A stretch of DNA of 64,000 nucleotides, taken from the IMG/VR virus record IMGVR_UViG_3300030090_003678, positions 1 to 64,000 of that record. One strand, given 5' to 3'. Of this stretch, positions 2,851-64,000 are shown piece by piece. The notes under the pieces were generated by a model. It saw only the letters and a program-made list of their open reading frames with translations, was not told the DNA's origin and made no database searches. The number at the start of each line of letters is the position of its first letter. Position 1 is the stretch's first letter. The DNA is from an uncultured virus (IMG/VR IMGVR_UViG_3300030090_003678) (taxonomy: Duplodnaviria > Heunggongvirae > Uroviricota > Caudoviricetes). A program made the translations under genes and the position numbers.

Positions 2851-4030
2851 TGCTGGTTTAAGCACGGTTGGTCTATCCGATATTAAAGCTCAAGATGCTC
2901 CTGTCTGCTTGTCACCAAATGATAAGTCCGTCATATGGGTATGGCTTGGTGGTGGAGCAACACAAGTAGAAACATTCGATCCTAAACCAGATGCTCCTGA
3001 CAACGTAAGAGCAGTTAATGGTTGGGTTAAAACAAATGCTGGTTATAGAATTGGTGCTGACTGGGAAAACTTAGCAACAGTTGGTGATAAGATGACTGTT
3101 GTGAGGTCATTTGCTCATGGCAATGCCAGTCACAGAACTGGGACTCATTGGGTGATGACTGGTTATAACAGTACAGACAACACACCACTGTCACCAGCTT
3201 ACAACCCTTCATACGGTTCTATAGTTGCCAGTTCGTATGGGTCAAACAATCCAATTACTGGTATGCCAGCCTATGTAAGAGTTAATAACATAACTTATGA
3301 TGGTGGTGCTTGGTTAGGCACTGACTACAAACCTTATGAAGCCACTGGTGAAGGTGTAAAAAATCTACAACTTAAAGTAGATAGAGAGCATTTTCTCGGT
3401 CGTCAGGATTTACTGACGGGTCTTGATAGATTGCGAAACAATACTAGCTTGCGCGATCAATCCTACAATATGCTTCTTGGTAATATTGCTGACGCTTTCG
3501 ATATAAAGAAAGAAGACCCAAAGAATTTAGAAGAGTATGGAAGTGGTATTGGAGAACAGCTACTTCTCGCTAGAAGACTTGCCGAAAGAGGCACTAAGTT
3601 CGTCACAATCCAATATGGCGGCTGGGATATGCACTCTAATATCTCTAAGTCATTAAAGAGCAGGGTTCCACCAGTTGATAAAGCTCTTGCTACATTAATA
3701 AAAGATATTCACAACAGAGGTCTTAATAAAGACGTTATGGTGGTTGTCACTGGTGAATTTGGTCGTACCTATAAGATTAATGCTAATTCAGGTAGAGATC
3801 ATTGGCCTAGATTATCACCATTGATGATTTCTGGTGGAGACTTCTTTACGGGTTATGCTCTTGGTGAATCTACTTCTAAAGCGGAAGAACCAAAGACAGA
3901 CCCATATAATCCACAGAATTTAACAGCAACATTACTTAAACATTTTGGTATTGACCAACATACACAGAGATTAGACATGGCTGGAAGGCCACGTTATTTC
4001 TTGGATGTTGGCACAGAATCTATTATCTAA
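2798..4030 (+). CDS. DUF1501 family protein with twin-arginine signal
   Basis: NRRDFMRIG Tat motif; SVIWVWLGGGATQVETFDPKP, GGWDMHSN, VVTGEFGRT..IN...GRDHWP signatures. Confidence 0.88.
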   Translation: MIDLQFNRRDFMRIGGISAGLSTVGLSDIKAQDAPVCLSPNDKSVIWVWLGGGATQVETFDPKPDAPDNVRAVNGWVKTNAGYRIGADWENLATVGDKMTVVRSFAHGNASHRTGTHWVMTGYNSTDNTPLSPAYNPSYGSIVASSYGSNNPITGMPAYVRVNNITYDGGAWLGTDYKPYEATGEGVKNLQLKVDREHFLGRQDLLTGLDRLRNNTSLRDQSYNMLLGNIADAFDIKKEDPKNLEEYGSGIGEQLLLARRLAERGTKFVTIQYGGWDMHSNISKSLKSRVPPVDKALATLIKDIHNRGLNKDVMVVVTGEFGRTYKINANSGRDHWPRLSPLMISGGDFFTGYALGESTSKAEEPKTDPYNPQNLTATLLKHFGIDQHTQRLDMAGRPRYFLDVGTESII

Positions 4031-18838: not shown

Positions 18839-19736
18839 GGCTGCTAAACAAGGAGACATACATGGAGGATTGTATGTCATAGATATAGACTCAGGAGAAG
18901 TAATTCATCATGCGCCTTATGAAAGAGATTTTGTCAATGATAATGAGCGTGGAGGAGAAAGAGGTCTTCGTGGCATTTGCGTTCTTCGTGATCGCATACT
19001 CGTGGCTGATTCTGCTGGCTTTATCGAATTAGATAAAAACACTTACGAGATAAAAAGAACGCATCAGAATAAAGACTACTTTAAAAGTATTCACGAAATT
19101 GCTTTTCACGACGATCACTTGTGGGTCACTTCTACTGCTTATGATGCGTTAGCAAAAGTCGATTTAGATTTTAATGTTGTTGATTTCTGGGATTTTCAAG
19201 GGAAGAGCTTAGAAAATTCAAAACTATTGACAGGAAAGAAGCAAATAAGACAGGAAGAAAAACAAGAAGACGACAACTACCACATCAATTCTGTTTGTAT
19301 TAATGATGGGAAGGTTTTTGTCTCTGGTTTACTCACTCCTCTTTATGACTTTGAGACAATGGATTCTGTTTGTGGTAGTCCTTCAATGAACGCTCATGGC
19401 TTTCCTTCGGTTTACAGCTTTGTTCACAACTTCTACAAATACGATGACTGTTTCATTGCTAACCTGACTAGTTTTAGCGCCATTGGTATATCAAAGGACG
19501 GCGAAGATTTTGAAATTCATAAAGTTCCAGCAGCCAAAAGAGCCATATACCATATTGATTCAATCGCAGCTAATAACTGGAATCGCGGGCTTGTCAGGTA
19601 CGGAGACAAAATAATTATTGGATCAACACCAGCTAGGATATTGGTTTTTGATATTCCAACAAGGACTTTTGAAAAAGAAATAAAGTTAGAGAAAGATATG
19701 AGGCACGCCATACACGGCTTGGAGATTATTCAATGA
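18810..19736 (+). CDS. Beta-propeller protein
   Basis: Repeated blade-like segments GLRGI, SIHEI, HINSV, VHN, WNRGL; GTG start. Confidence 0.6.
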   Translation: MKIICTTVIRAAKQGDIHGGLYVIDIDSGEVIHHAPYERDFVNDNERGGERGLRGICVLRDRILVADSAGFIELDKNTYEIKRTHQNKDYFKSIHEIAFHDDHLWVTSTAYDALAKVDLDFNVVDFWDFQGKSLENSKLLTGKKQIRQEEKQEDDNYHINSVCINDGKVFVSGLLTPLYDFETMDSVCGSPSMNAHGFPSVYSFVHNFYKYDDCFIANLTSFSAIGISKDGEDFEIHKVPAAKRAIYHIDSIAANNWNRGLVRYGDKIIIGSTPARILVFDIPTRTFEKEIKLEKDMRHAIHGLEIIQ

Positions 19737-19927
19737 AGTTAGATGAGAAGATCGCAGAAAAAAACCTAGCGAAAAAGATGCAAATTTCAAAAAATACTCA
19801 CGCTTGGGTATTGCCGAAGCAAAACGGCTTCTATAAAATGGTGGCTTACTATAGGGGAAAAACCCCTATTTGGGTGCATCCAGAATACGCTCTTCAAGAG
19901 AAGAAAAAGAAGTCATCTAAGGGCTAA
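19733..19927 (+). CDS. Small basic hypothetical protein
   Basis: ATGA-coupled ORF. Confidence 0.5.
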   Translation: MKLDEKIAEKNLAKKMQISKNTHAWVLPKQNGFYKMVAYYRGKTPIWVHPEYALQEKKKKSSKG

Positions 19928-20007
19928 ATCTGGTTCAGCCCAAGTAGGTCTTACTTGAACAAACTTACAGCCTCTTTGGGAAATTGAAAACCGGCTTGGT
20001 TGAAATC

Positions 20008-20017
20008 GTGTATAATA
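20008..20017 (+). promoter_or_regulatory. GTGTATAATA promoter motif, copy 4
   Basis: Exact decamer immediately 5' of the structured RNA and nrdA. Confidence 0.65.
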
Positions 20018-20018
20018 C

Positions 20019-20172
20019 CTTGTTGGGTTATAAAGAGCTTCCTACAGACGGAGAGCTAGAGCGACACCAACTCAACAAGCCCTTGTCGCACCAAGTGAGT
20101 AGTTTAATAAAAATTTTTTTAGTAAGTTTCCTCTAACAAATTGCTTGGTTCACAAGTGTCGCTCTATTTTTT
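20019..20172 (+). ncRNA. Candidate structured RNA / nrdA leader with pseudoknot potential
   Basis: Pairings 20019-20029/20069-20079, 20036-20042/20050-20057, 20057-20067/20156-20166 (perfect 11 bp), 20082-20098/20141-20156; ends in T6. Confidence 0.55.
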
Positions 20173-20197
20173 GTAAGAGGCGTATAGCGGATAGATT

Positions 20198-22654
20198 ATG
20201 ACATCAGATATTAAGGTTAAGAAGCGCAACGGACGATTAGAACAGATAAACCTAGATAAGATTAACAAATGCGTAGAGAGAGCCTGTGACGGCCTTACTG
20301 ACGTATCGGTTAGCGAAGTTGTATTAGATGCAAGTCTACAGCTATACAACAAAATTACGACATCTGAAATAGACACCGCTCTTATAATGTCGGCTCGTTC
20401 TAAAATAGAGCAAGAACCAAACTATAATTATGTAGCCACGAACTTATTACTCTCTAGCTTGTATAAAGAAGTTTTTGGTAAGAGTGTAAATGGTGATTTC
20501 CAAGAAGAATACAAAAGCTGTTTTATAAAACACATAAAAGCTCTTGTTAAAGAAGATCGGCTTAGCGAATCTATGCTAAGTTACGACTTGGAGTTTCTAA
20601 GCGAAAACCTGTCTATAGATAGAGATAAAAATTTCAAGTATTTAGGAATACAAACTCTTTACGATAGATACTTCATACACAAAGAAGGTCGTCGTATGGA
20701 AACTCCACAAGCGTTCTATATGCGGGTCGCAATGGGTCTTTGTTTGAATGAAGAAAATAAAGAAGAAAGAGCCGTTGAAATATACAACATGATGTCTGAG
20801 TTTAGATACTCGCCTTCTACTCCTACTCTTTTTAATAGTGGAACTTGCCACTCTCAATTATCGTCCTGTTATTTAAGTACAGTAGATGACTCTATTGATG
20901 GCATCTTTGGAACTATTCACGGTCAGGCTAGACTTTCAAAGTATGCTGGAGGTCTTGGTGTAGATTGGAGTTCTGTTCGTTCTACTGGTTCTTACATTAA
21001 GGGAACAAATGGTCAGTCTTCTGGATTAATTCCTTGGTTGAAGATATTTAATGATACTCTTGTCGGGGTTAATCAAGGCGGTAAACGAAAAGGTGCTGGA
21101 TGCGCTTACCTAGAAGTGTGGCATCTTGACGTTGAAGATTTTTTAGACCTCAGAAAAAACACAGGTGATGATCGTCGCCGTTGTCATGATATGAATACTG
21201 CATTATGGATTTGCGATGAGTTCATGTTAGCGGCTCAGAAAGGAAGGGATTGGTATTTGTTTGATCCGTCCGAATGTCCTGACCTGCACGAAACATACGG
21301 CAAAAAATTCACCAGAACTTATAACAAATATAAAAAAATGGCGAAAGAGGGAGGGATCAAAAACTTCCGTGTCATAAACGCCAAAGACTTATGGAAGAAG
21401 ATGCTGAAGTCTCTTTACGAAACAGGGCATCCATGGGTTACTTTTAAAGACCCTTCTAATATTCGCTATAGTAATAAGCATGAAGGTGTTGTTCATTCTT
21501 CCAATTTATGTACAGAAATACTTCTTCATACAAAGCCAACTCTGTATGAAGATGGTGAAGTTGTTGAAGTAGGAGAGACTGCTGTTTGTAACTTGGCTTC
21601 TATCAATCTTGAAAACCATATTAAGGTTCGCACTATTGATTGGAAGAAATTGCAACGAACAGTAGAGGTGGCAGTCAGAGGATTGGATAATGTTATTGAT
21701 CTCAATTTCTATCCAACCAAAGAAGCCGCCAAGTCTAACCTGCGAAATCGTCCTATTGGTTTAGGTATTATGGGTACTCACGGCTTGCTACATAAGCTAG
21801 GAGTTGTTTACAACTCCCAAGATGCTGTTGTTCTCTGTGGCAAGATACAAGAATTCATCTCTTACCATGCTATTCTTACTTCTTCTAAGCTAGCGAAGGA
21901 GCGAGGACACTACGAATCTTATGAGGGTTCTGAGTGGAGTTTTGGTAATTTGCCTATCGACACTTATTGTCGATTGATGAACGAGAGATACCCAGAACAC
22001 TTAAAGAGCGGTAAAGATAATCACTATAAACCTTCCGACTTTGAGCAAATGGATTGGAACAAAGTTAGAAGTCATATAGCTGAATATGGAATGAGAAATT
22101 CAAATGTTATGGCTATCGCTCCTACTGCAACAATTTCTTACATACAAGGATGCTCACAATCTATTGAGCCTGACTACTCAGTTCTTTTTGTTTACTCAAC
22201 ATTGAGCGGAGAGTTCACAATGATTAATGAGCATTTTGTAGAAGTGGCGAAAAAGAAAGGGATATGGGGCAAAGACTTGATTGAAGCCCTTAAAGCCGCT
22301 GATGGAGATGTGATGTCTATTAATTTAGATGAAGAAATACAGCGAGAATTCAAAAGTGCATTTGATATAGAACCGAAAATTCTAATAGATGCTGCCGCCG
22401 AAAGGCAGAAATGGATTGATATGGGAGAATCCCTCAATCTATACAACAAAGGAACAAGCCTTAAATATCTCAACGATATGTATATGCACGCTTGGGAGCA
22501 AGGTTTGAAGACTACATATTATTTAAGAAGCAAAGCAGCAACTAGACTTGAAAAGTCTACTGTTGTTGCCGCCAAAGAAGAAGTACCTGAAGAAGATTTG
22601 AGTCAGGTAAAGGCGTGTTCTTTGGAAGATCCAGATTGTGAAAGTTGTCAGTAA
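20198..22654 (+). CDS. nrdA: Ribonucleotide reductase class I alpha subunit with ATP cone
   Basis: VKKRNG ATP cone, TPTLFN, SSCYL, NQGGKRKGA, SNLCTEI, VCNLAS, APTATIS, TTYYLR, C-terminal CxxC. Confidence 0.97.
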   Translation: MTSDIKVKKRNGRLEQINLDKINKCVERACDGLTDVSVSEVVLDASLQLYNKITTSEIDTALIMSARSKIEQEPNYNYVATNLLLSSLYKEVFGKSVNGDFQEEYKSCFIKHIKALVKEDRLSESMLSYDLEFLSENLSIDRDKNFKYLGIQTLYDRYFIHKEGRRMETPQAFYMRVAMGLCLNEENKEERAVEIYNMMSEFRYSPSTPTLFNSGTCHSQLSSCYLSTVDDSIDGIFGTIHGQARLSKYAGGLGVDWSSVRSTGSYIKGTNGQSSGLIPWLKIFNDTLVGVNQGGKRKGAGCAYLEVWHLDVEDFLDLRKNTGDDRRRCHDMNTALWICDEFMLAAQKGRDWYLFDPSECPDLHETYGKKFTRTYNKYKKMAKEGGIKNFRVINAKDLWKKMLKSLYETGHPWVTFKDPSNIRYSNKHEGVVHSSNLCTEILLHTKPTLYEDGEVVEVGETAVCNLASINLENHIKVRTIDWKKLQRTVEVAVRGLDNVIDLNFYPTKEAAKSNLRNRPIGLGIMGTHGLLHKLGVVYNSQDAVVLCGKIQEFISYHAILTSSKLAKERGHYESYEGSEWSFGNLPIDTYCRLMNERYPEHLKSGKDNHYKPSDFEQMDWNKVRSHIAEYGMRNSNVMAIAPTATISYIQGCSQSIEPDYSVLFVYSTLSGEFTMINEHFVEVAKKKGIWGKDLIEALKAADGDVMSINLDEEIQREFKSAFDIEPKILIDAAAERQKWIDMGESLNLYNKGTSLKYLNDMYMHAWEQGLKTTYYLRSKAATRLEKSTVVAAKEEVPEEDLSQVKACSLEDPDCESCQ

Positions 22655-23661
22655 TGAAGAAGACTAAAGAAATTATTTCGGATAAAGTTGCAGTAGTTAA
22701 TCAAATCCTTCCCCACACAAATAAATGGGCTTGGGATTTATTCATTGATGGCGCAGCCAATAATTGGATGCCAACAGAAATATCAATGGCAAAGGATATT
22801 GAGCAATGGAGATCAGACTCATTGACCAATGATGAAAAGCTGGTGGTCAAAAGATCGCTTGGTTTTTTTGCTGGTTCAGAGTCTTTAGTTGCAAATAACC
22901 TTTTGCTTAGCATATTCAAATATGTTACTGATCCTGAATGTCGCCAATACATCTTAAGACAAGCATACGAAGAAAGCCTACATAATCTTACAGTAGTATA
23001 CTGCTGTGATTCTCTTGGGTTGAAGATCGACGAAGTTTACCAAGCTTACAATTCGATCCCTAGCATAAAGTCTAAAGACGAGTTCTTAATGAACATCTGC
23101 ACAGATATAAATCGTCCAGACTTTAATATCAATACTCTAGAAGGTAAGAGAGAATTCCTAAGAAATATCATTACCTACTACGTCATATGCGAAGGAATCT
23201 TTTTCTTCTCTGGTTTTGCAATGCTACTTTCTTTTAATAGACAAAATAAGCTTCCCGGAATTGGAGAGCAAATTCAATACACGCTTCGTGATGAAAGTCT
23301 ACATATTAAATTTGGAACTAATTTGATTAATAGAATCAGAGAAGATAATCCAAAAGTTTGGACTAAAGCGTTTGAAAAAGAAACTTTGGAACATATAGAC
23401 AAAGCCATGGAACTTGAGCTTGCCTACGCAAGAGATGTTCTTCCAAATGGCATTCTAGGTCTGAACTCAGATATGTTTATTGACTATGTTCAATTCATAG
23501 CAAATAGAAGACTAGAAAATCTAAATTTACCAAGTCCATATGAAGACACTAAAAATCCATTTCCGTGGATGAGTGAAATAATTGACTTGGAAAAATGTAA
23601 AAACTTTTTTGAAACTCGCGTAACTGAATACGCAGTAGGAAATATAGAGGACGATTTTTAA
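22654..23661 (+). CDS. nrdB: Ribonucleotide reductase beta subunit, class Ic-like
   Basis: WMPTEI, FFAGSESLV, EESLH, EGIFFFSGF, RDESLH, NFFETRV.EY. Confidence 0.95.
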   Translation: MKKTKEIISDKVAVVNQILPHTNKWAWDLFIDGAANNWMPTEISMAKDIEQWRSDSLTNDEKLVVKRSLGFFAGSESLVANNLLLSIFKYVTDPECRQYILRQAYEESLHNLTVVYCCDSLGLKIDEVYQAYNSIPSIKSKDEFLMNICTDINRPDFNINTLEGKREFLRNIITYYVICEGIFFFSGFAMLLSFNRQNKLPGIGEQIQYTLRDESLHIKFGTNLINRIREDNPKVWTKAFEKETLEHIDKAMELELAYARDVLPNGILGLNSDMFIDYVQFIANRRLENLNLPSPYEDTKNPFPWMSEIIDLEKCKNFFETRVTEYAVGNIEDDF

Positions 23662-33510: not shown

Positions 33511-34501
33511 TCTTGGAACGCTAGAGTTTTGCCAGCAAAAATATTTTTTGCAATACAACCTCTCCTTCAAAGACAAAACCAACGCAAAAGCCTTGATGGG
33601 TACTATTACCCATAAAGTCATGCAGACTCTTGGAGACAAGAAAGTCGCAATGAATAAAGGTCTTGATATTGTAGAAGACGAAGAGACTGGCAGGAACCTG
33701 ACATTAGAAGAGTGTGACAATCTTGAGCTTTTGAACAATATAGCTTTCGATTATTACACAAACGCTTTCCCAGAAGTCAATCTTGGAGAGAAAGAAAAAA
33801 GGCAATGTCTTCGCTGGGCAGAAAAAGCTGTAGCTTATCAAGATGGATTGTTAGATCCTAGAAACCAAAACGTATTTGCGACTGAGTTATTTTTTGACAT
33901 AGAGATAAAAAAACCTTGGGCAAAATACAAGTATGAATTTGAAGGGCAAACAATAGAAGGATACTTATCAATAAAAGGCACTGTTGACCTCATCCTAGAA
34001 CATGGTGACGGATACTACGAAATACTAGATTACAAAACTGGAAAAAGAATAAACTGGGCAACAGGAGAAGAGAAGACTCACGAAAAACTACAGAAGGACA
34101 CACAATTACTTCTTTACTATTACGCCCTAAAGAATATGTATCCAGACAAGGAATTCTCAGTCAGCATTTATTACATCAATGACGGCGGACTATTCTCAAT
34201 GGTGTTTGATGAAGAAGATTATGAAAAAGCCGAACAGATACTCAGAAAGAAGTTTGAGCAGATAAGAGACATAGAACAACCAAAACTCCTATCTAATGAA
34301 AACAAGCATTGGAAATGCCAGAAGTTATGTAAGTTCAGTCAGCCCTACAAAGAAGGTGCTGAAAAAAGTGTTTGTCAATACATCAGAGACCAGATAAAAG
34401 GTCGAGGTATTGTCGAAGTTGTTGAAAAGTTTGGAAAAATTGAAAAGATCGCCACTTATGGAGATGGCGGCGGAAGATTAGCAGAAGATAATAAAAAATG
34501 A
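33482..34501 (+). CDS. Cas4/AddB-like PD-(D/E)XK exonuclease
   Basis: C...Y, GT..H, E, GTVDL, ILDYKTG, QL.LY and C-terminal C...C....C cluster. Confidence 0.85.
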   Translation: MIVCYHRSSSLGTLEFCQQKYFLQYNLSFKDKTNAKALMGTITHKVMQTLGDKKVAMNKGLDIVEDEETGRNLTLEECDNLELLNNIAFDYYTNAFPEVNLGEKEKRQCLRWAEKAVAYQDGLLDPRNQNVFATELFFDIEIKKPWAKYKYEFEGQTIEGYLSIKGTVDLILEHGDGYYEILDYKTGKRINWATGEEKTHEKLQKDTQLLLYYYALKNMYPDKEFSVSIYYINDGGLFSMVFDEEDYEKAEQILRKKFEQIRDIEQPKLLSNENKHWKCQKLCKFSQPYKEGAEKSVCQYIRDQIKGRGIVEVVEKFGKIEKIATYGDGGGRLAEDNKK

Positions 34502-36408
34502 GTTGGACTCCACTACACCTACATACGCATTACAGTTTACTAGATGGCCTCTCTAAGCCCTCACAGGTCGCCTCACGCTGCTCAAAGCTCGGCTATACCT
34601 CCTGTGCTATGACAGATCACGGCACTATATCTGGAGCTGTGGCCTTCACACAGGCAATGAAGAAAAAGAACATCAAACCAATACTTGGGTGTGAGTTCTA
34701 CCTAAGCCAGCAAGATTGCACAATTAAAAACGAGGAAAATAGGAAGCTCAGTCACCTTTGCGTGTTAGCTAAAAACAAGCAGGGTTGGGACAATCTAATT
34801 CAGGCAGTATCAAAAAGTAATGACGAAGAAAATTATTACTACAAACCAAGACTAGATCTTTCTACTCTAGGTCAGTTTTCTGATAACCTAATTGCTTTTT
34901 CTGGTCATCTAGGAAGTGATTTGGCCAATGCAATATTTGTTGATGTGAAGTCTGCGTATAACGCCGTAACGATTGACGAAGTCAAGAGGTACACACATCC
35001 CGAATGGGATAAAAAGGTTCTAGAGATAGCCAATAAATATAGAGATATATTTGGTAAAGACAATTTCTTCATAGAAATACAAACCATTGATGAAGAAAAC
35101 TCTCCTGCTTCAAATTTGGTAGCGCAAGGATTGAGATACATCGCTAAAAAATATGGATTCAGAACAGTTGCTACTGCTGACTCTCATTATCCAGAAAAGC
35201 AAGATGCTAATGACCAACTCTTGTTGTTATGTTCTTCTTTGAAGACAACTCTTCCAAAGATAAGAAAGAAGCTCAAAGAAACTGGAGACTCGGCTTTTAC
35301 TGGCTTCATGAGGTCTAACAATTTTCATATACCTTCATTGGAAGAAATGCAGGCAGTCAATACTCCTCAAGAAATTGCTACAGCAATGGAAATCGCTGAT
35401 ATGTGTGAGGAGTATGATATTTTAGGCAAGCCAATGCTTCCTAAATTCAAATGCCCCAAAGAACAAACAGAAGAGCAATATCTCAGAAACCTATGTCGTG
35501 ATGGATGGAAAAATGTATTAATGCCAACAGGCAAAGTTAATACCCAATCGGCAAAAGATTTATACACAGAGAGAATTAAAGCAGAGCTTGATGTCATTAG
35601 TGAAGCCAATCTTTCTGGTTATTTTTTGATTGTTAGAGATATTGTTAATAGTGTGCATGAAAGAAATCATATTCCGGGTCCCGGAAGAGGTTCTGCTGCT
35701 GGATGTTTAGTGTCATACTTAGTTGGTATAACTCAAGTAGACCCAATTGAATATGGCTTAATTTTTGAAAGATTTTACAATGCTGGAAGAAATACTGCTG
35801 ATAGAGTCTCCTTGCCTGATATTGATATTGATGTACCAGCTACTAAGCGCGATGAAACCATCGACTATATCCGACAAAAGTACGGAAACGAAAGAGTTGG
35901 TCAGATGGTAACTTTTGGTAGACTGCAAGGACGAAGCGCATTAAAAGAAGTTCTGCGCATGAATGAGGCTTGCGGTTTTGAAGAAATGAACAATATAACC
36001 AAAAGTCTTCCGCACGAACATGAAGTATCCGATCAATTAGCTGAAATGGAAGAGTCTTCTGTTATAAAATGGACTCTAATGAATCAACCTGAATCTTTGC
36101 GTGGCTATTGCCGATTAAATGATGATGGTGAGCTTGAAGGAGACTACGCAAAAGTATTTGAACAAGCCATGAGAATTGAGGGGACTTTCAAATCTCAAGG
36201 AAAGCACGCTGCTGGCGTAGTCATATCTTCACATAACTTAGATCAAGTATGCCCTATGGTGAGAGACAAAAAAGGATCAGAAAAAATTGCTGGTCTTGAA
36301 ATGAATGATTTAGAAGCTATGGGTCATGTAAAATTCGATATATTGGGAATCTCATTGATGGATAAAATTATGGGTGTGAGAAACCAACTAGAGAAAGCAG
36401 ATGCATAA
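34498..36408 (+). CDS. dnaE: DNA polymerase III alpha, N-terminal polypeptide (PHP and catalytic palm)
   Basis: HLHTHYSLLDG, TDHG, GRGSAAG, FERF, PDIDID, HAAGVV, KFDILG, then stop. Confidence 0.95.
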   Translation: MSWTPLHLHTHYSLLDGLSKPSQVASRCSKLGYTSCAMTDHGTISGAVAFTQAMKKKNIKPILGCEFYLSQQDCTIKNEENRKLSHLCVLAKNKQGWDNLIQAVSKSNDEENYYYKPRLDLSTLGQFSDNLIAFSGHLGSDLANAIFVDVKSAYNAVTIDEVKRYTHPEWDKKVLEIANKYRDIFGKDNFFIEIQTIDEENSPASNLVAQGLRYIAKKYGFRTVATADSHYPEKQDANDQLLLLCSSLKTTLPKIRKKLKETGDSAFTGFMRSNNFHIPSLEEMQAVNTPQEIATAMEIADMCEEYDILGKPMLPKFKCPKEQTEEQYLRNLCRDGWKNVLMPTGKVNTQSAKDLYTERIKAELDVISEANLSGYFLIVRDIVNSVHERNHIPGPGRGSAAGCLVSYLVGITQVDPIEYGLIFERFYNAGRNTADRVSLPDIDIDVPATKRDETIDYIRQKYGNERVGQMVTFGRLQGRSALKEVLRMNEACGFEEMNNITKSLPHEHEVSDQLAEMEESSVIKWTLMNQPESLRGYCRLNDDGELEGDYAKVFEQAMRIEGTFKSQGKHAAGVVISSHNLDQVCPMVRDKKGSEKIAGLEMNDLEAMGHVKFDILGISLMDKIMGVRNQLEKADA

Positions 36409-38024: not shown

Positions 38025-39611
38025 ATGAATACTTTTGATCCACTTAAAGTTAGCTTTAATGATGAGGCAACTTGGGACTTGATTTGTTCTGGACATACTA
38101 AAGGAGTCTTTCAGCTTGAAAGTAATCTCGGTAAGTCTTGGGCTAAACGAGTTAAGCCTAGAAATGTTGAAGAACTTGCTGCGTTAATTTCTATCATCAG
38201 GCCGGGTACATTAAAAGCCATTCAAGATGGCAAGTCAATGACCCAAAGGTTTGTTGACAGAAAAAACCTAACCGAAGAAATAATTTATATCCATGACTCC
38301 CTTGAGCCAATCCTCAAGAACACTCAAGGAGTTCTTGTGTATCAAGAGCAGTCTATGCAGATAGCGCAGCAGCTAGCTGGATTTGACCTTCAAGAAGCCG
38401 ACAATCTAAGAAAAGCGATTGGAAAGAAAAAAGCCGATCTAATGGCTAAAATCAAAAAGCAATTCTTAGCAGGCACAAAAAAGAAAGGCATAGTAGATGC
38501 AACGACGGCAGAAGAAATATTTAGTTGGATCGAAAAGTCCAGCCGTTATGCTTTTAACAAGTCTCATGCAGTCTCTTATGCAATTTGCGCTTATTGGAGT
38601 GCTTACGCTAAAGCACATTATCCACTTGAGTTTTACTGCAACTATCTTCTGCATTCGTCGAGCAAGATAGATCCTCAGCTTGAAGTAAAACAATTAGTAA
38701 ATGACGCAAAAAATAATGAGATATACATCAATCCTCCATCTGTAAAAGCAATAAATGCGAAGACAGACATAATCGACAAAGAAATTTATTTCGGTTTATT
38801 AGATGTAAAGACTGTTGGTGAGCGACAGGTAAACAAATTCAAAGAAGTTGTTGAAGATAACGAAATTCGCATTAATAAAGATCTGAAAGATTGGTCTTGG
38901 TATGAATTTCTAGTTCTTGCTTCACCTAGCCTTAGTTCTAGAATGCTTGTTGCGGTCATATCTGTTGGCTTTTTTAGTCATCTACCAGAATCTAGGTCTA
39001 GAATGATTGACGAGCTAGATACTTGGAATGAGCTTACCAAAAAAGAAAAAGAATGGGCAATTGATAACTTCCATAGATTCGACAACATAATAGACTTGCT
39101 GGTAGCATTGGCTCCAACCAAAAAAGAAGGTGGTGGAACTTTCAACTCAAAAAGGTCAATCAAGATAAAAGACTTAGTGATTCAATGCAAGAACCCTTCT
39201 TACTCCCTGAATGATGACCCAGAATGGGTTATAAGAACAGAAGAGCATTATTTGGGAGTTGCTCTTACTTACTCTAGAGTCGAGGCTTATGACACTAGGC
39301 TAGCTAACACAACAATAAAAGAGTTTGTTGATGGAAAGCGTGGAGATGTTAAAATAGCAGTAACGATATCTGAAGTTAAAAAATGGGTCACTAAAAAAGG
39401 AAAAATGCAAGGATCTGAAATGGCTTTTCTTTGCGTTGAAGATACGACTGGAACACTTGATACTGTCACCGTCTTCTCTGAAAAGTGGAAAGAATACAAG
39501 AATGTACTCTATCCCGGAAATAATGTCATAATTTCTGGAGCTAGCAGTGCTTCAAGCAGAAGACAAATAGATGACGGGCTTGTTGTTCAAGACATTATAG
39601 AGCTGAATTGA
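38025..39611 (+). CDS. dnaE: DNA polymerase III alpha, C-terminal polypeptide (fingers, HhH, OB)
   Basis: GVFQLES, IRPG, LVYQEQ.M, ADNLRKAIGKKK, YAFNKSHA, KAHYP.EF, MAF...ED.TG. Confidence 0.95.
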   Translation: MNTFDPLKVSFNDEATWDLICSGHTKGVFQLESNLGKSWAKRVKPRNVEELAALISIIRPGTLKAIQDGKSMTQRFVDRKNLTEEIIYIHDSLEPILKNTQGVLVYQEQSMQIAQQLAGFDLQEADNLRKAIGKKKADLMAKIKKQFLAGTKKKGIVDATTAEEIFSWIEKSSRYAFNKSHAVSYAICAYWSAYAKAHYPLEFYCNYLLHSSSKIDPQLEVKQLVNDAKNNEIYINPPSVKAINAKTDIIDKEIYFGLLDVKTVGERQVNKFKEVVEDNEIRINKDLKDWSWYEFLVLASPSLSSRMLVAVISVGFFSHLPESRSRMIDELDTWNELTKKEKEWAIDNFHRFDNIIDLLVALAPTKKEGGGTFNSKRSIKIKDLVIQCKNPSYSLNDDPEWVIRTEEHYLGVALTYSRVEAYDTRLANTTIKEFVDGKRGDVKIAVTISEVKKWVTKKGKMQGSEMAFLCVEDTTGTLDTVTVFSEKWKEYKNVLYPGNNVIISGASSASSRRQIDDGLVVQDIIELN

Positions 39612-57361: not shown

Positions 57362-60300
57362 CTATTCGTGTATGTTTACATGCATTATTGAATCGCCATG
57401 TGTTCCGTACCTAAGTTCCATATCTTCAAAGTGTGGTCCTAGATAATGGGTCCAGCATTTTTCTTCGCATTGATGAAAGTTTAATGGACCTCTCTCATTG
57501 CAACATATCTGATCGAAACCTAAATAGAAATCCATATTTACTGGTTTATTGCTATTGCCTTGTCTGCAATTATTTACCGGAGGTGGATATCCAATAATAA
57601 TATCAAATGCTCCTCCATGCCTACTCCAAACTGCTCTCCAGTGAGGATCTGCATATTCATTAAACTTTTCATTTTCTGCTTGTGGAGCATAAATAACTCC
57701 TTTAAAGTTTCTAGGAGCTAAACCTATTCCGACTTCGTGACCCATTAACATAGCTTCTGGAGACGATAATTCTAAGAACTTTTCTTTTTGAGTTATCAAG
57801 TTTAATTTTCTATCGTCAGCTGAATTTGCTACAGGTTTTCCAAGATACTTCACAGTACCCTTTACAATCTTAGTACATTCAGCAGGAGTCCTTACGTTCA
57901 AGGTGTTTCCACTACTATCAATACAAACAAATTCATTTATTATTTGTGTATCAATGGATGCTCCAAGAGTTAATCCTGCTTCTCCACATTCTTTCTTTGT
58001 TTTTTGTATAACTGGCCCAATAAACACTCCTGTTGGGCCGCACTCAGATGCTGTAACGCTTTCGGTTACTTCATTGCCATCAACTAAGTATATACATGTT
58101 CCAGCTTGGTCGTCACTAACATCTCTACATTCTTTGTATGGTCGGATTGATTCACATGAATCGCTCATATCACAAAGCCTAGCCATCTCCAAACTTTCCT
58201 GAGAGTCGTCAGGAACATAACTATCATCAGCAGGGAAATAAAATGGGAACTGTTGATCCAACGTATTCAAGTCAACACACGTATCAAACACACTTGAATA
58301 CGTAACATCTCTAACAGAACCGCATGTGTTTATCCACACGCCTTTTACCCAATCATAACCTCTTGATGTACAGGCAGTTTCGTTATCAATTTCGTAAAGG
58401 GTGCAGAAGTGTTGCTCGCAACCAGCTTTCGTGTCTACTTCTGATGGAGGATCAGTAACTTCACCATTTGTATCTTCCCATTTAGTACCTTGTGGGAATT
58501 CACAACTTCCTAATCTGCTAGCTAGACCTCCTTCAGTTATCTTCTCTCCTTCTCCAAAGAATCCAGCATCTTTAGTAACCGTCTTTAATTTTTGTGATGG
58601 GTCATATTCCCAATCGCTTGCTTTTCCAAATCTAGGAGCTGGTTTATTTGCTTCAAGATTGCTTCTTAATTGAGATGCGTCATGAACAACCAACTCTAAT
58701 TCATCATGAAGCGCAAACCTCGTCGCTGCTGTTACTGGCTCCCACCAATGCCAGCCATTTTCTTTGCAGTCTTCCTTGTTGTCATATTTTGCATTTTGAC
58801 AACCACGCTTTCTTACAACATAACTACCATCAGCTGGACCTCTAGGACATCTCATTTCCCTCTGTTCGTTGCCTGAGTCATCTTCATATTTTATTTCTAC
58901 GCACTCAAAACATTGTCCTAGAGGGTTAGTTTTACTAGGAGGTTGACATGGATCTTGCAAATAGAACCCATTAATTTGACAGCCGACAGGACATCCTTCT
59001 ACAAAGAAATCTTTTGCGTCTCCAGTTTTTTGTCCACCACTAATTTCTAATGGTTTTAGATTTAATGGATCTTTGTATTTATACCCATCTTTTTCATCGT
59101 TTCGTCTTCCAATTACCCAATCGCCACCAAATATTCTTTCGCATAAGAATTTGTCTCCATCCATTCCTAATGGACTTTCTGGGTCTCCAGTGTCTTCATA
59201 TAATTGAACCCATTCTCCATTAGTTTGAAATTCAGCTAATCCTCCGGGAGTTACAGGGTTTGGTATTCCTCCAAATCCAACTCTATCACATTCATTTTTA
59301 TCAGTAATAGGATCGCCATTAGAGTCTGTTATTCCTGTGTTTGTTGCTACATCTACACAAGCTCCTTCAGAACACTCATTTATGTCCATTCTGCTTACGT
59401 TCATGCCATAACGGTCATCAACACAGTATCCCATTCTTGTACCTTTGCAGGTGGCGGGATAAACTACGCTACCACTAATAACAACTTTTTCTGCATCAGC
59501 TAGGTCGTGGTCGTAGTGTGTAGCCACTTCTGTGTGCGAAAAATGTGGTATCCAGAGATGTCCATTTCCAACACATGTTGAGTTATTTTTGTATGTATTA
59601 TTTGTACAGAAGTAATCTTCATCTGAATAGATATTTTCAAATGCATTAATCATGACTGGCTCAACTGGCAGTATCTCTGGAATTGGAGTGGTCATTCCTC
59701 CACCAGTATCTACCTCTTTGTACCTAAACATTCTATTCAGATTATCAACGGTTGGTTTCGGACCAATTCTTCCCGGCTGTGTTATAGAACCAGTTGGATC
59801 TGTCCTTAAACTTTCAACATTAGATGGTCCCATAGGAACACCCTTTGGCCACATTGACATGTGTCTGCTAAGAGAAGAATGTGTCTGGTGATCGACCGGC
59901 CATGGATTCAAACCATATGGTTGGGGAAGCTCTAAATTCTGCTTCATGTTCATATAGTCAAAAGTAGTAGCCGATACTGGATTGCCGTTTTGGGTTCTTG
60001 TCCTATCGTAAATTCTAAGATGTCTATTTTTTCTAGGATTTTTTGTGATTAGCTTCGATACATCAGCAACCCTAATTTCCATATACTGACCGCTTCCACG
60101 ACCCGCATCTCCATCTTTGTCTGGAATATTATCCCCTCTTGGGATATCTGTATAGAGTATAGTTCCTCCAGCAGGTAAATATGGATTCCTTGATTTATTA
60201 CTTCTGGAATAACTGCCAAATGTATCCGTTTCTGCTTGTTGTAATTCTGCTAATCCAATACCAATCGGTGTGCCTTTTTCATAAGCGCAATGTCTGCCCC

Positions 60301-63300
60301 CAAACGTAGGTGGATAAGCAGGTATAACTAAAGTAGCCTCTCCTGTTTCTGGATCAACATCTTTAACATACCGAACGGTAAATTGCTCTGCTGGCTTGTT
60401 TGGAATTGGGTCAAATCCATACGATTGACATCTGTGACTTATATCGCCACCAGTAGAACAAGCAACACCGCCGCTCCACAAAGGAGCGCGAATTGGTGGA
60501 CTTCCTCCGCCTGTTCTGAAGGGGTAGTCTATTCCAGTGTATGTACAACATTCCGTATCAACACATGCCCCACTTGGGCCACAATCATTTTTGGATATAC
60601 ATCTTCCAGCAAAAGTATATCTTCTTTCTAACGCACTAGGCTTTCCTGTTTTTCTCCAAGAGTCTCCGGTAATCAACCGTTTTGGTAAACATCCAATTAA
60701 CCCTCCAGTATCGCAAGGTGGCACTCCCGTTACGCCATCAGTTACGTTGTCAACCCTTAGACTCTCAGACCCCAAAAAAGATGTAAATGTACAATTTGTT
60801 ATTTCTGCCCAAATTTCTAAACCATTTTGTCTATAGTTGTCTCCTCCATTAGGTCCAAACCCACCATCAACTATATCACCACTGTTATAAGCCGCCATTG
60901 AAGGTATAGAATTTCCACAGCCCATTACTAATCTAATAAAGTGACCATCTTGTGGCAGACTAGGAGGTCTTGCATTTCTGAATACTAGGTCTGAACTTAG
61001 GCCATCTACTCGCACTCCGCCATTCATTCCTCCATATTGAGGCATATCACAAGCGTTGCAGTCGGCATTTATTGCTACTAACTCATCTCCTGCTTTGAAT
61101 GACGTATAGGGGCTAAAGTCTAAATTTGGTCCAGTTGGTTGGCAAGCTGAAGGCCATTTGAATCTATGCAAGCCTAAATCACATTGATGTGTACCAACTG
61201 TGTTCATTAAAGTCCACTCAGATCTCCAAACAACGCCATCATATTCCATAGGGACATCTAAAGACTGTAATCCCGGACAAGTTTCATCTACAGGTTCATG
61301 GCTATTTGTATGGTCAACACAAGTTTCATCTGCCTCTGTTTGTATATGGAGACCATAACATCCTGTATATGCATCATTATCATATCCTTCATCTCCATTT
61401 CCATTAACGTGACAAGTACCATCTCCAATGTCTTCAACGACTTCGGGTTCATATTTCATCTCAACAAAATTTGGATAACAAGAGCAAGGATCAAATGCCC
61501 AAATATATGCAGACTCAGGTGCATCTGAAACTTTAGTACATGTCGCTGTCAATGCTGAAGTGATCTGAACTACTTCCCCTACATTTTGGTCACCACAATT
61601 TTTCTCTTCTATCCCTGAACATGATTTTGCTTCTTTACATGGCAAATATGGATGTGAACAATTTCCTATAATATCGTTGTTATTGTCAGACACTAACGCT
61701 TCACAATAGGCATCTGCACAACAATCAGTTTCTTTGCCGTCTTTGTCTACTCCTATGTATTGTACTTGTGTGTTTCCTGTTTGACTAACAGTCTTCGTTT
61801 TGGATCGAGAGGTATAAACTGATGAACATTTTCTACAATTAGTTCCCCCACCCATGGTAGGTCTTTTTCTTAAAAACATATTACACTCAGAAACACCACC
61901 AGAGTGCGTTAAAGGAGTAAACGTTTCATCTTTACCATCACAACCCTTTTTCCTCCATTTGAGGGTTTTAATCCGTCCACCATCTTCTGTGCATGTTCCA
62001 AATGTAATGTCAACATTATTTGGGTCTGCTATATGTCTTCTGAACTCATCTTCGCATTCTGGCAAATCTCTAAGATCGCAAGGATGAAAAGTATCAGAAC
62101 AACAATAACCTTCATTTTTTAATGCTTTTGCCGCATTGAAACTTTGGCTATCATCAGCAGTAGGAGCTTCACATTCATCCATGCCGCAGCCAATATAGTC
62201 TAATATCTCGCTAGATTGGCCAGTAACAGTTGCAACTAACTTGTTTGGCATAAAGTGGTCACAGCAAACAGGACATATTCCTTTTTGTTCTATTTGAACA
62301 TAGTAATCATTTGCTCTTTCTTCCCATTTATATCCCGGACCGCCGAAACCAAATCTATATAGACTATCTATTTCATCATCTTCGTAATGTCCAATATACC
62401 CACCTTCAACACCAATATCTTCGTGATGTCCCCAATAATCAAACTCTCCGGTGAATGGACATGTTTTATAAACACCAACACTCGGTTTTCCTTTACCTGA
62501 AGTAAGTTCACTACCAAGATCCAGTATGCCTAAATCGCCATACCAAGCTTGCGACCAACATGTCTTGAAAGGATCGTCATTATTTAAATCAACACAATCT
62601 GCATATCTTCCTTCAATAAACGTAGCGCCTTTAAACTCAAATCCACTTTCTTCACAATCGGATTTGTTGTTTATTCCACCAACTACATCGCCATCGTAGT
62701 CATAACATTTTCCTTTACTTTCACATGCCTCTTTTTGTTCTTCTGTAGTTCCAGAATGAAGATCTTTGTCATTTAAAAGTTTTGCGTCAGCATCTTGACA
62801 TCTATTAACATAAAGCTGGTTTTTGTGGTCTACATCAACGCTAGGGTCGTACATGGTATATACTTGCGCGAGTGCATCACAATCTTCTTTTTTCATAAAT
62901 GCATTGGCGTTTGACTCGTATCCTAGCACTACAGTACAAGTACCATATAAAGCACAATTTATTTCTGCTTCATTATCTGCGGTCTTTTCGTCATCTTCAA
63001 AAGTGTCATAGTTTCTCCAAGAAGTCGTCCATCTCTCAGCAAAGTCCGTACAGTCTGCTTTACTTTTTGGATTTCCGTTTTCGTCTAATGCACCAGTTTT
63101 ATCTATGGTGTTAAAACATATACCAAGAGCATCACAATCTGCTTCCGCACAAGCCTTTCCTCCATCAGATTGCGTTTTATAACAAGTATGTTCTTCGTCT
63201 ATTGGAGCGCCTGAAGCTTCACTATTTGTTATGGTATCGCCTGTTGGAATATGAGTAGACTTTCCATTATTTTGGAATGAGAGCTTGCCGGTATATGTAT

Positions 63301-64000
63301 CTAAACAACGAAATTGTGCAGGTTCTTGAGATGGTATTCCCTTATTTTCTGCCAGCTTTTTAGTGATCCAATTGACTTGTTCAGGCGCTTCTGCTGCACC
63401 CATACCAAGTCGATAGTTCATAATACAACCTTCTTCAACTTCCTCTACACATTCAGTTGTATCAATATTTGCTTTGTTTATTATCCTTCCATCTACTGGA
63501 TACTTGTCGCATGTATATAAGTCGAATGTGTCTAATGTTACATTTTTAATAACAAAGAAGTCAGCTGGTGGAGGAATTTCACCATTAATTATTTCACCGG
63601 AACAAGCGTAGTATTTACTATCGCAACTGAGTTCCCATGTACCTCCGCCGCCTTCCCATACTCCACCACATCCCGGAGGGCCATCTGCATCATCTTTTAC
63701 ACAACCACACTCTTCTCCCGGAGCTTTATCTTGATCAACAGTAAATCCTGAAGGACAGTTCCCATCATCATCCTGCATCTTGCATATATCGGCATCAGCT
63801 TCGCAATCAGTCTTTCTGTCACATACTGTTCCATCTTCTCTTTTCTTTGAACATTTTCCATACTCACACTCTAACTTACTTCCTGCATCAGTTGATGCGT
63901 CCCATTTATAAACAGGTCCAAGACAGTCCTTTTTCTCTAGATCAACTTCTGAGTCGTCAGACAGTCTAATACATTTGCCTTGAGAATCGTCTAGGCAAGC
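57362..64000 (-). CDS. Giant Cys-rich repeat protein, probable virion fibre/surface protein (5' truncated)
   Basis: Frame stays open upstream of ATG 63778 to the window end (checked manually), so more than 2200 aa; recurring C-x(n)-C-x3-G-x2-W units. Confidence 0.75.
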   Translation of the reverse strand, partial: ACLDDSQGKCIRLSDDSEVDLEKKDCLGPVYKWDASTDAGSKLECEYGKCSKKREDGTVCDRKTDCEADADICKMQDDDGNCPSGFTVDQDKAPGEECGCVKDDADGPPGCGGVWEGGGGTWELSCDSKYYACSGEIINGEIPPPADFFVIKNVTLDTFDLYTCDKYPVDGRIINKANIDTTECVEEVEEGCIMNYRLGMGAAEAPEQVNWITKKLAENKGIPSQEPAQFRCLDTYTGKLSFQNNGKSTHIPTGDTITNSEASGAPIDEEHTCYKTQSDGGKACAEADCDALGICFNTIDKTGALDENGNPKSKADCTDFAERWTTSWRNYDTFEDDEKTADNEAEINCALYGTCTVVLGYESNANAFMKKEDCDALAQVYTMYDPSVDVDHKNQLYVNRCQDADAKLLNDKDLHSGTTEEQKEACESKGKCYDYDGDVVGGINNKSDCEESGFEFKGATFIEGRYADCVDLNNDDPFKTCWSQAWYGDLGILDLGSELTSGKGKPSVGVYKTCPFTGEFDYWGHHEDIGVEGGYIGHYEDDEIDSLYRFGFGGPGYKWEERANDYYVQIEQKGICPVCCDHFMPNKLVATVTGQSSEILDYIGCGMDECEAPTADDSQSFNAAKALKNEGYCCSDTFHPCDLRDLPECEDEFRRHIADPNNVDITFGTCTEDGGRIKTLKWRKKGCDGKDETFTPLTHSGGVSECNMFLRKRPTMGGGTNCRKCSSVYTSRSKTKTVSQTGNTQVQYIGVDKDGKETDCCADAYCEALVSDNNNDIIGNCSHPYLPCKEAKSCSGIEEKNCGDQNVGEVVQITSALTATCTKVSDAPESAYIWAFDPCSCYPNFVEMKYEPEVVEDIGDGTCHVNGNGDEGYDNDAYTGCYGLHIQTEADETCVDHTNSHEPVDETCPGLQSLDVPMEYDGVVWRSEWTLMNTVGTHQCDLGLHRFKWPSACQPTGPNLDFSPYTSFKAGDELVAINADCNACDMPQYGGMNGGVRVDGLSSDLVFRNARPPSLPQDGHFIRLVMGCGNSIPSMAAYNSGDIVDGGFGPNGGDNYRQNGLEIWAEITNCTFTSFLGSESLRVDNVTDGVTGVPPCDTGGLIGCLPKRLITGDSWRKTGKPSALERRYTFAGRCISKNDCGPSGACVDTECCTYTGIDYPFRTGGGSPPIRAPLWSGGVACSTGGDISHRCQSYGFDPIPNKPAEQFTVRYVKDVDPETGEATLVIPAYPPTFGGRHCAYEKGTPIGIGLAELQQAETDTFGSYSRSNKSRNPYLPAGGTILYTDIPRGDNIPDKDGDAGRGSGQYMEIRVADVSKLITKNPRKNRHLRIYDRTRTQNGNPVSATTFDYMNMKQNLELPQPYGLNPWPVDHQTHSSLSRHMSMWPKGVPMGPSNVESLRTDPTGSITQPGRIGPKPTVDNLNRMFRYKEVDTGGGMTTPIPEILPVEPVMINAFENIYSDEDYFCTNNTYKNNSTCVGNGHLWIPHFSHTEVATHYDHDLADAEKVVISGSVVYPATCKGTRMGYCVDDRYGMNVSRMDINECSEGACVDVATNTGITDSNGDPITDKNECDRVGFGGIPNPVTPGGLAEFQTNGEWVQLYEDTGDPESPLGMDGDKFLCERIFGGDWVIGRRNDEKDGYKYKDPLNLKPLEISGGQKTGDAKDFFVEGCPVGCQINGFYLQDPCQPPSKTNPLGQCFECVEIKYEDDSGNEQREMRCPRGPADGSYVVRKRGCQNAKYDNKEDCKENGWHWWEPVTAATRFALHDELELVVHDASQLRSNLEANKPAPRFGKASDWEYDPSQKLKTVTKDAGFFGEGEKITEGGLASRLGSCEFPQGTKWEDTNGEVTDPPSEVDTKAGCEQHFCTLYEIDNETACTSRGYDWVKGVWINTCGSVRDVTYSSVFDTCVDLNTLDQQFPFYFPADDSYVPDDSQESLEMARLCDMSDSCESIRPYKECRDVSDDQAGTCIYLVDGNEVTESVTASECGPTGVFIGPVIQKTKKECGEAGLTLGASIDTQIINEFVCIDSSGNTLNVRTPAECTKIVKGTVKYLGKPVANSADDRKLNLITQKEKFLELSSPEAMLMGHEVGIGLAPRNFKGVIYAPQAENEKFNEYADPHWRAVWSRHGGAFDIIIGYPPPVNNCRQGNSNKPVNMDFYLGFDQICCNERGPLNFHQCEEKCWTHYLGPHFEDMELRYGTHGDSIMHVNIHE

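Follow-up and report, generated by a model that had tools for sequence, protein, structure and literature searches.

The locus and its genes

The stretch of DNA analysed here, referred to as the window (64,000 nucleotides), belongs to the record of an uncultured virus of the Caudoviricetes (IMG/VR IMGVR_UViG_3300030090_003678), which is 76,944 bases long and about 51% complete as estimated by CheckV. The record contains rIIB, a split DNA polymerase, a primase, a helicase, a UvsX-like gene, a sigma factor and many sugar-modifying genes. The polymerase (phrog_405) occupies two open reading frames, at 34498-36408 and 38025-39611 of the window, and between its halves lie two further frames, one similar to a polymerase exonuclease subunit and the other to a methyltransferase or glycosyltransferase. 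A frame of 2138 codons on the minus strand (57362-63778) has no PHROG match at E up to 1e-5, and both the coding strand and the GC skew change at about 56 kb. Among cultured phages the highest identity is 48% for NrdA and 35% for the DNA polymerase, so that there is no cultured relative to inspect, and a blastn search with positions 19700-20500 gave no match among GenBank phages.

The element under study lies in a non-coding gap (19928-20197) between a 64-aa open reading frame (19733-19927) and nrdA (20198-22654, plus strand, ATG at 20198), which encodes the large subunit of a class I ribonucleotide reductase (RNR) with an ATP-cone, as assigned by Pfam (Ribonuc_red_lgC 9.4e-184; ATP-cone) and PHROGs. 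It is followed by nrdB (22645-23661, PHROGs), a SET-domain frame, a dUTPase and PhoH, and the gene block downstream of the leader RNA remains on a single strand for about 35 kb. ARAGORN found no tRNA or tmRNA genes in the window. A small hairpin, CAAGTA-GGTC-TTACTTG (19941-19960), without a U-run, lies between the stop codon of the upstream frame and the leader promoter, and AAGTAGGTCTTACT, from the same region, recurs in many relatives (L001-L003, L012, L016-L025).

Elements of the RNA in the window

All the elements described in this section are on the plus strand. The first is a promoter-like -10 element, TATAAT (20011-20016), placed after GTG (20008-20016 for both; GTGTATAATA covers 20008-20017) and without a good -35 element. 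Next comes the 5' strand of helix P1, CTTGTTGGGTT (20019-20029), which forms 11 pairs, one of them G-T, with its 3' strand AACTCAACAAG (20069-20079); a start of transcription about 7 nt past the -10 box would leave about 8 of these pairs. Within the loop closed by P1 are found a conserved A-rich joiner, J1/2 (AUAAAG, 20030-20035), the hairpin P2 (20036-20057; AGCUUCC paired with GGaGAGCU, with one bulged A and a loop at 20043-20049) and the strand AGAGCGACAC (20058-20067). The latter forms a long-range helix, PK, with GUGUCGCUCU (20156-20165), and this helix crosses P1, which is the arrangement of an H-type pseudoknot. With the flanking position included, TAGAGCGACAC (20057-20067) is fully complementary to GTGTCGCTCTA (20156-20166). 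The PK 3' strand (GUGUCGCUCUA, 20156-20166) is followed directly by a run of six U residues (T6, 20167-20172), and this terminator-like site lies 25 nt before nrdA.

Between the P1 3' strand and the U-run the window carries a long, clade-specific hairpin, P3 (20082-20156), composed of P3a (20082-20086/20152-20156), P3b (20090-20098/20141-20149) and an A/U-rich tip; its arms read CTTGT-CGC-ACCAAGTGA (20082-20098) and TTGCTTGGT-TC-ACAAG (20141-20156). The motif UGUCGC (20084-20089), a possible competitor for the PK 5' strand, overlaps the 5' strand of P3a. A first-pass annotation had described a promoter-flanked, pseudoknotted RNA upstream of nrdA, and every helix and motif that it named proved to be in place on inspection of the sequence and in a repeat search, which recovered both 11-nt arm pairs (100% and 91% complementary).

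Taken alone, the sequence of the window gives a signal that is moderate. A perfect 11-bp inverted repeat arose in 3 of 1000 mononucleotide shuffles of positions 20017-20175, and the minimum free energy of this segment (-39.5 kcal/mol, z = -2.28) was equalled by the folds of 5 of 200 shuffles. The evidence from conservation and covariation in relatives is far stronger. A leader peptide was considered as a different use of the same DNA and rejected: the candidate frame (19984-20136) starts 5' of the -10 box, has no Pfam family and contains a 2-nt insertion or deletion between the near-identical loci L001 and L002. Also discarded was an NrdR operator; with the 16-bp palindromic box consensus and up to 3 mismatches, the only match in the window is at 10788, and none lies near 20000.

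Distribution in phages and metagenomes

Relatives were collected from IMG/VR with NrdA as the query, which yielded 141 confirmed stretches; the best 80 were kept, representing 70 loci, and the 260 nt upstream of nrdA were compared. The core of the RNA was described by a covariance model (R1; 68 positions, 16 pairs), which has a single match in the window (20015-20081, spanning P1, P2 and the PK 5' strand; 68.4 bits, E 8.7e-13) and a single match in the whole 76,944-base record. On the 70 nrdA loci the model gave one match each in 48, the window being the 49th match, and none in 16 loci with enough upstream DNA (L029, L052-L059, L061, L063-L066, L069, L070); the remaining 6 are too short upstream to be judged. 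The four further records of 93-145 kb that were scanned contain one significant match each, and extra genomic copies were absent, the sole additional match scoring 17 bits (E 0.16).

A second route to relatives was an exact pattern made of two strands, which is independent of any protein. In IMG/VR this pattern retrieved 43 loci, and a version with a longer gap 20 loci; in metagenomes it retrieved 108 loci, 81 of which score with R1, two borderline partial matches having been set aside. The 185,579 bacterial and archaeal species genomes gave 12 matches to the pattern, which is about the number expected by chance in the author's estimate, and none of the 12 scores with R1, a result that led to the rejection of a bacterial origin. 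At the stringency used, every occurrence of the RNA is in a contig from a phage or from a marine metagenome.

Searches for a known family gave consistently negative results. Rfam 15, applied to positions 19000-21000 with E up to 10, produced five weak matches, none of them over 20008-20197; applied to 12 diverse homologous loci with E up to 5, it produced five weak matches to different families in three loci, none recurrent and none at the gathering score. Among the results listed by full-text literature searches there was no description of an RNR-associated phage RNA, and in the portions of PMC3653736 that were covered the word 'riboswitch' occurs only in the reference list. The RNA, which the first-pass annotation could not assign to a family either, is thus a new family of the structured cis-regulatory leader kind, absent from Rfam 15 and not found in the literature searched.

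Covariation and the pseudoknot

Two of the alignments used, A1 (39 distinct sequences) and A2 (54 sequences, including the copies linked to nrdJ), were made with MAFFT and were not fitted to a structure; A4 (60 sequences) was fitted to the model and therefore leans towards the structure, and A5 contains 48 sequences of the window's clade. The three-helix pseudoknot pairs 83.6% of cells in A1 and 78.9% in A2, against 34-47% (34-45% in A1) in a control in which the partner strand was slid by 1-3 columns, and none of 500 shuffles of A1 reached the observed covariation score.

P1 shows double-sided changes at 10 of its 11 pairs in A1, A2 and A4. P2 shows them at 3 of 5 pairs in A1; in A2 this helix is blurred by a one-column shift introduced by MAFFT, with P1 and PK appearing as in A1, and in A4 two of its three inner pairs change on both sides and the outer A-U and G-C pairs are nearly invariant. 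In the PK helix 94-95% of cells are paired in A1 and A2, and 2 of 10 pairs carry double-sided changes, which in A1 are AU 18 / GC 14 and GC 30 / AU 7. The two crossing helices that make up an H-type pseudoknot are therefore both seen to covary. G-U pairs are present in P1 (one column pair of A1 is GU 21 / GC 18) and in PK (AU 31 / GU 8), which identifies the plus strand as the strand that folds. These observations also led to the rejection of a transcription-primed replication origin, built from a promoter and A/T-rich DNA, since covariation and G-U pairs point to a folded plus-strand RNA.

As the PK 5' strand lies inside the P1 loop and both helices covary, the RNA forms either an H-type pseudoknot, with a hairpin in loop 1 and a large variable domain in loop 3, or two alternating folds; the same pair of options had been put forward in the first-pass annotation, whose proposed test for covariation in the upstream regions of relatives has now found the helices conserved and covarying. 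RNAalifold on its own recovers only PK, because it cannot model pseudoknots. A subgroup of copies linked to nrdJ (L081, L084, L089, L092, L095, L100, L106) has P1 strands that copy the PK strands (GUGUCG in the P1 5' strand, CGACAC in the P1 3' strand), so that a nested fold of two hairpins, P1-5'/PK-5' and P1-3'/PK-3', is about as good as the pseudoknot; this copying could be a built-in switch or the trace of a duplication.

The variable domain is less uniform. In A5 the P3b helix changes on both sides at 8 of its 9 pairs and has 88% of cells paired, and P3a forms at least 4 pairs in 36 of the 48 sequences of the window's clade, as counted by a script that had no control; other clades have different hairpins at the position of P3. 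The competition between UGUYGC and GCGACA, which had been suggested from the window, fares unevenly: the two motifs can pair in 94% of A5 cells, but no pair changes on both sides, and by eye the motif is not seen in clades B, C and D, so that the competitor is a clade-specific possibility. The pairing of CCTCT (20130-20134) with AGAGG (20176-20180) upstream of the nrdA start did not survive comparison, given that just three loci have AGAGG, namely the window and the two relatives nearest to it (L001-L003). For the same lack of conservation, the idea that this pairing sequesters the ribosome site was rejected, and the likely ribosome site is a GGA closer to the ATG than AGAGG.

Conservation is strongest along the PK strand, in the closing A-G/C..G of P2, at a single A in the joiner and at one P1 position, a G that faces either U or C. 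Column 20 of A4, in the joiner, is A in 92% of sequences, and the joiner reads ATAAAAG in the consensus of A1-A3. In the PK 5' strand A, C and A are invariant, and in the 3' strand GTGTCG-T is invariant in 54 sequences; the sequence of the 8-bp core of PK hardly changes, in contrast to the freely varying P1 and P2. The constancy of the AGCGACAC/GUGUCGCU helix across clades whose other helices covary freely, together with the conserved P1 G and its U or C partner, is what would be expected of an operator read by a protein of the phage or the host (a translational repressor, for example, or the reductase itself) that recognizes the invariant helix and the joiner and sets termination or the stability of the mRNA. 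Such an operator is considered quite improbable; conserved helices beside the binding pocket are usual in metabolite riboswitches as well.

Link to ribonucleotide reductase genes

The search with the exact pattern, in which no protein was used, is informative about the genes that follow the RNA. Class I nrdA lies downstream in 28 of the 43 viral loci found in this way, and a different protein in the other 15. The full frames of four of these (L073, L080, L088 and L093, the four that were scanned) encode a B12-dependent class II reductase, with the class II insertion domain and RNR_Alpha, and the distinct members of this set of 15 also give tblastn matches to the L080 protein. With the longer-gap pattern came further class I genes, only about 32% identical to that of the window, and one more class II case. 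In total, an RNR gene lies downstream and on the same strand in all 65 distinct viral copies (51 class I, 14 class II), and the reductases belong to two class I lineages and to class II. The 60 model-positive metagenome loci with flanking sequence agree: RNR is downstream in 56, three end too soon and one (L173) is without it; in L173 no RNR lies within 900 nt, and the genes downstream are a 230-aa frame to which no family was assigned and a cytidylyltransferase.

Some loci depart from the simple arrangement. The apparently interrupted frame of L081 has RNR_Alpha only; this class II gene, on the reverse strand (frames 708-1172 and 1-475), consists of a 155-aa RNR_Alpha frame that stops and a new frame about 230 nt further on, a break that could reflect a frameshift, an intron, or the remnant of an intein or homing endonuclease. 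Genes are inserted between leader and reductase in L088, L180 and L228, the insertion in L088 (1319-1914) comprising a staphylococcal-nuclease-like frame and one of 54 aa.

The gene upstream of the RNA is variable and may be a small frame (64 aa in the window), a matrixin, a trypsin-like peptidase or a dCMP deaminase. Five carriers of nrdJ have a DNA polymerase with 54-84% identity to that of the window, at a similar distance from the RNA, which indicates that the carriers compared form one phage family with a conserved gene order in which the reductase has been swapped. It follows that the two RNR classes are not independent backgrounds and that the class swap is weaker evidence than it first appears; the link of the RNA to both classes may partly reflect the conserved gene order.

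Promoter-like and terminator-like elements in relatives

Most loci share a common layout. Its 5' part consists of the TATAAT box, usually within GTGTATAAT, a P1 that differs between clades, the conserved A-rich joiner and a P2 ending in GCUA; its 3' part consists of A(A/G)AGCG(A/G)CAC, the P1 3' strand, a clade-specific domain of 70-110 nt, AAGUGUCGCU(CU) and, usually, a U-run. An exact TATAAT occupies the equivalent place in 86 of the 110 distinct model-positive copies, with GTG just 5' in 77, and the best -35 element at a spacer of 16-19 has 4 or 5 mismatches in 58 of the 110. A generic scan for promoters and terminators called no site at the element: the promoter is missed because the scan requires a -35 element and none is present, and the terminator because the loop exceeds the 3-8 nt that the scan allows. 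The terminator-like features themselves, a stem of 11 bp followed by T6, are present, with the stem closing 88 nt. What is supported of the first-pass proposal is a pseudoknotted RNA, conserved in the relatives, that bears a promoter-like -10 box and a U-run and is tied to RNR genes.

At least 5 T residues occur within the 10 nt after the PK 3' strand in 86 of the 110 distinct copies. The PK 3' strand stands without a U-run in the other 24, which implies that the pseudoknot is not simply a terminator; in the L027, L045 and L127 types the strand without a U-run is followed by a separate terminator, which argues that the pseudoknot has been conserved for more than termination.

The proposal that the RNA has no regulatory role at all, and either shields the mRNA with a structure at its 5' end or serves as a fixed, leaky terminator at the boundary of a transcription unit, draws on two observations. 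P1 begins at the predicted 5' end, and distant relatives of the phage (L052-L059, L061) have a simple promoter, hairpin and U7 before nrdA. In these relatives, whose NrdA is 60-62% identical, a TTGAC...TAAAGT-type promoter, a short hairpin (ACACACC...GGGGTGT) and T7 take the place of the pseudoknot RNA; this simple leader occupies the last 70 nt or so before the nrdA match (about 2930-3000 in those loci where the match begins at 3001), and its T7 lies about 10 nt from the start of nrdA. In T4-like phages, promoter-plus-stem-loop cassettes have been proposed as unit boundaries of this leaky kind. A stabiliser or a boundary, however, needs no pseudoknot, no invariant 8-bp helix and no joiner conserved across about 110 distinct sequences, and a purely structural role is the least likely of the rival explanations, being highly improbable.

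The 3' side of the 65 distinct viral copies falls into several groups, as read by the author from a table. In about 30 copies, the window included, 14-49 unstructured nt separate the PK 3' strand from the start codon, which leaves no room for another promoter and makes the promoter of the leader the nearest one for the reductase gene; in the window, the reductase mRNA must carry the RNA structure at its 5' end. About 14 copies carry an additional hairpin terminator of canonical form 10-20 nt ahead of the start codon; in about 18 others this hairpin comes together with a spacer, with 131-144 nt to nrdA, and a few have small open reading frames between the RNA and the reductase gene. In the copies with the additional hairpin terminator the RNA could be a transcription unit of its own. 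In two loci, L072 and L112, the RNA is followed neither by a U-run nor by a hairpin and is plainly the 5' UTR of nrdJ. In clade C (L004-L011, L033, L041-L048) a conserved segment of about 30 nt, …GTACAATTGAAATAGTTACAA…, is found between the second terminator and nrdA, 60-80 nt before the start, and this segment could be a separate phage-specific promoter or operator.

These arrangements bear directly on whether the RNA is instead the product of an independent small RNA gene, equipped with a promoter and a terminator, that acts in trans on an RNA or protein of the host or the phage and is adjacent to RNR only through conserved gene order. It has a promoter-like box directly 5' and a U-run directly 3'; an extra strong hairpin terminator follows it in about 32 of the 65 distinct viral copies, in the author's reading of the table; one clade has about 110 nt more before nrdA, including the conserved segment with its possible separate promoter; the 8-bp PK core is almost invariant while P1 and P2 are free to vary, as expected of a recognition site; and the carriers are one related family. 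Set against this, the RNA is always on the same strand and directly before a block headed by RNR, in spite of a variable upstream gene and a swapped reductase class, about 30 distinct copies have no other nearby promoter for nrdA or nrdJ, L072 and L112 have no terminator before nrdJ, and one contig from an RNA library continues from the RNA into nrdA. A gene acting in trans is regarded as unlikely. The first-pass annotation had offered either an attenuator or riboswitch or a standalone RNA; the leader position favours the former, and the latter is kept alive by the extra terminators and by the distances of 130-145 nt to nrdA.

Six RNA runs contain part of the stretch, all of them as contigs, which show neither ends nor strand, and four were compared with the window. 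The bridging contig comes from a marine metatranscriptome; it is identical to positions 20035-20233 and spans the U-run into nrdA. A contig from an oligo-dT library, with 14 differences and therefore from a relative, covers 19926-20190, including DNA upstream of the proposed start, and runs X1 and X3 contain only stretches internal to nrdA. The bridging contig is compatible with read-through and proves little, as contigs of this kind may derive from DNA.

Read-through is also the basis of another proposal, namely that the leader is a processive antitermination RNA which, like put of phage HK022 or EAR of Bacillus, would bind the polymerase and allow it to pass the terminators without any ligand, so that the reductase and replication genes can be expressed. 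In clade D, in L013-L020 and in L127-L140 the promoter and the structured RNA are followed by one or two strong terminators and, 10-20 nt on, by the start codon; as there is no room for another promoter in this layout, expression there requires read-through. An RNA followed by terminators is found in about half of the distinct copies, and in the window the 35-kb one-strand block comes after it. Both put and EAR, the latter of which contains a pseudoknot, share with the phage RNA a promoter-proximal position in cis followed by terminators and then genes. The phage RNA, by contrast, has no Rfam match to any antitermination RNA and a single copy per genome, and its own 3' helix and U-run are terminator-like rather than anti-terminator-like in most copies. 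An antitermination role of this type seems very improbable.

Comparison with known leader RNAs

Structured leaders upstream of RNR genes have precedents. The 2'-deoxyguanosine riboswitches are variants of the purine riboswitch that precede RNR genes in Mesoplasma florum, and the 2'-dG-II type occurs in marine metagenomes. They resemble the phage RNA in being structured 5' leaders of RNR genes with a terminator-type expression platform, and provide a precedent for the sensing of nucleotide pools; they differ in architecture, being purine-family three-way junctions, whereas the phage RNA is an H-type pseudoknot with inserted hairpins. The purine-family models had no match at positions 19000-21000 of the window at E up to 10 or in the 12 homologous loci at E up to 5.

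The closest architectural parallels are the H-type pseudoknot riboswitches SAM-II, SAM-V, preQ1-II and fluoride. These also have a first stem, a loop strand that pairs with the 3' tail, an A-rich loop and conserved base pairs in the docking helix, and it is the docking of the 3' tail that is regulated in them. The phage RNA, on the other hand, is of much greater size: its loop 1 contains a hairpin and its loop 3 a variable domain of 70-110 nt, and a U-run comes directly after its docking helix. None of the four models matched in the Rfam scans of the window region and the 12 loci.

A third group of leaders is formed by the PeSL cassettes of T4-like phages, in which a host-type promoter and a stem-loop precede early genes, nrd genes included. 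Distant relatives of the source phage have exactly such a simple leader; the RNA described here is, in contrast, a conserved multi-helix pseudoknot with covariation and invariant positions.

A cis-acting attenuator as the preferred explanation

The RNA, which is about 150 bases long in this marine phage, probably controls the amount of reductase that is made. Starting from what is observed, namely the helices and their covariation, the folding strand, the promoter-like and terminator-like elements, the single copy per genome and the link to reductase genes, the most economical reading is that of a cis-acting 5' leader that attenuates transcription by means of an H-type pseudoknot, the docked 3' strand completing a terminator shortly upstream of nrdA. 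The start of transcription, termination upon docking, its regulation and the signal we infer, and we give the reading a probability of roughly 0.55.

Under the attenuator model, RNA polymerase would start a few bases past the conserved TATAAT, at about 20022. In the nascent RNA, P1 would enclose P2, the A-rich joiner and the strand AGAGCGACAC, which stays exposed, and P3 would form next. When GUGUCGCUCU emerges it could dock on the exposed strand, and with U6 directly after it the helix would act as a terminator about 25 nt before the nrdA start codon; if docking fails, transcription would continue into nrdA-nrdB and the replication genes. UGUCGC (20084-20089) may, in the clade of the window, capture the exposed strand and so block docking. 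The balance between the two outcomes would be set by a signal, most likely a small molecule of the nucleotide pool and possibly a protein. A point against attenuation is that the terminator would be an unusual one, its 11-bp stem enclosing 88 nt.

A more specific version of the attenuator can be proposed, although tentatively: the RNA might be a new riboswitch class, in which a deoxynucleotide, or a different reporter of the state of the dNTP pool, would occupy a pocket of the pseudoknot, so that the docking 3' strand becomes the terminator stem and the RNR operon is turned off. In four respects the RNA resembles metabolite riboswitches of the H-type pseudoknot kind: its joiner is conserved, its docking helix is near-invariant, its peripheral domain varies and it is linked to a single enzyme. 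The frequency of extra terminators leaves a free-standing small RNA, a put-like antitermination RNA and a protein operator open as well.

Significance

RNR sets the supply of DNA precursors and is among the commonest metabolic genes of marine phages, and little is known of how phages regulate it. The RNA described here is well defined: it is represented by about 110 distinct sequences, three of its helices covary and its docking helix is near-invariant. It precedes both class I and class II reductases in a family of uncultured phages with genomes of roughly 150 kb. It is also compact and open to in vitro tests with E. coli polymerase, for which no cultured host is needed. If it is bound by a protein or acts in the manner of put, it would reveal how the timing of replication genes is set in this phage family. 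Sensing of a metabolite would make it a new riboswitch class, and a rare example of one carried by viruses; if the metabolite is a deoxynucleotide, these phages would have direct feedback, at the level of RNA, on the supply of precursors for their DNA.
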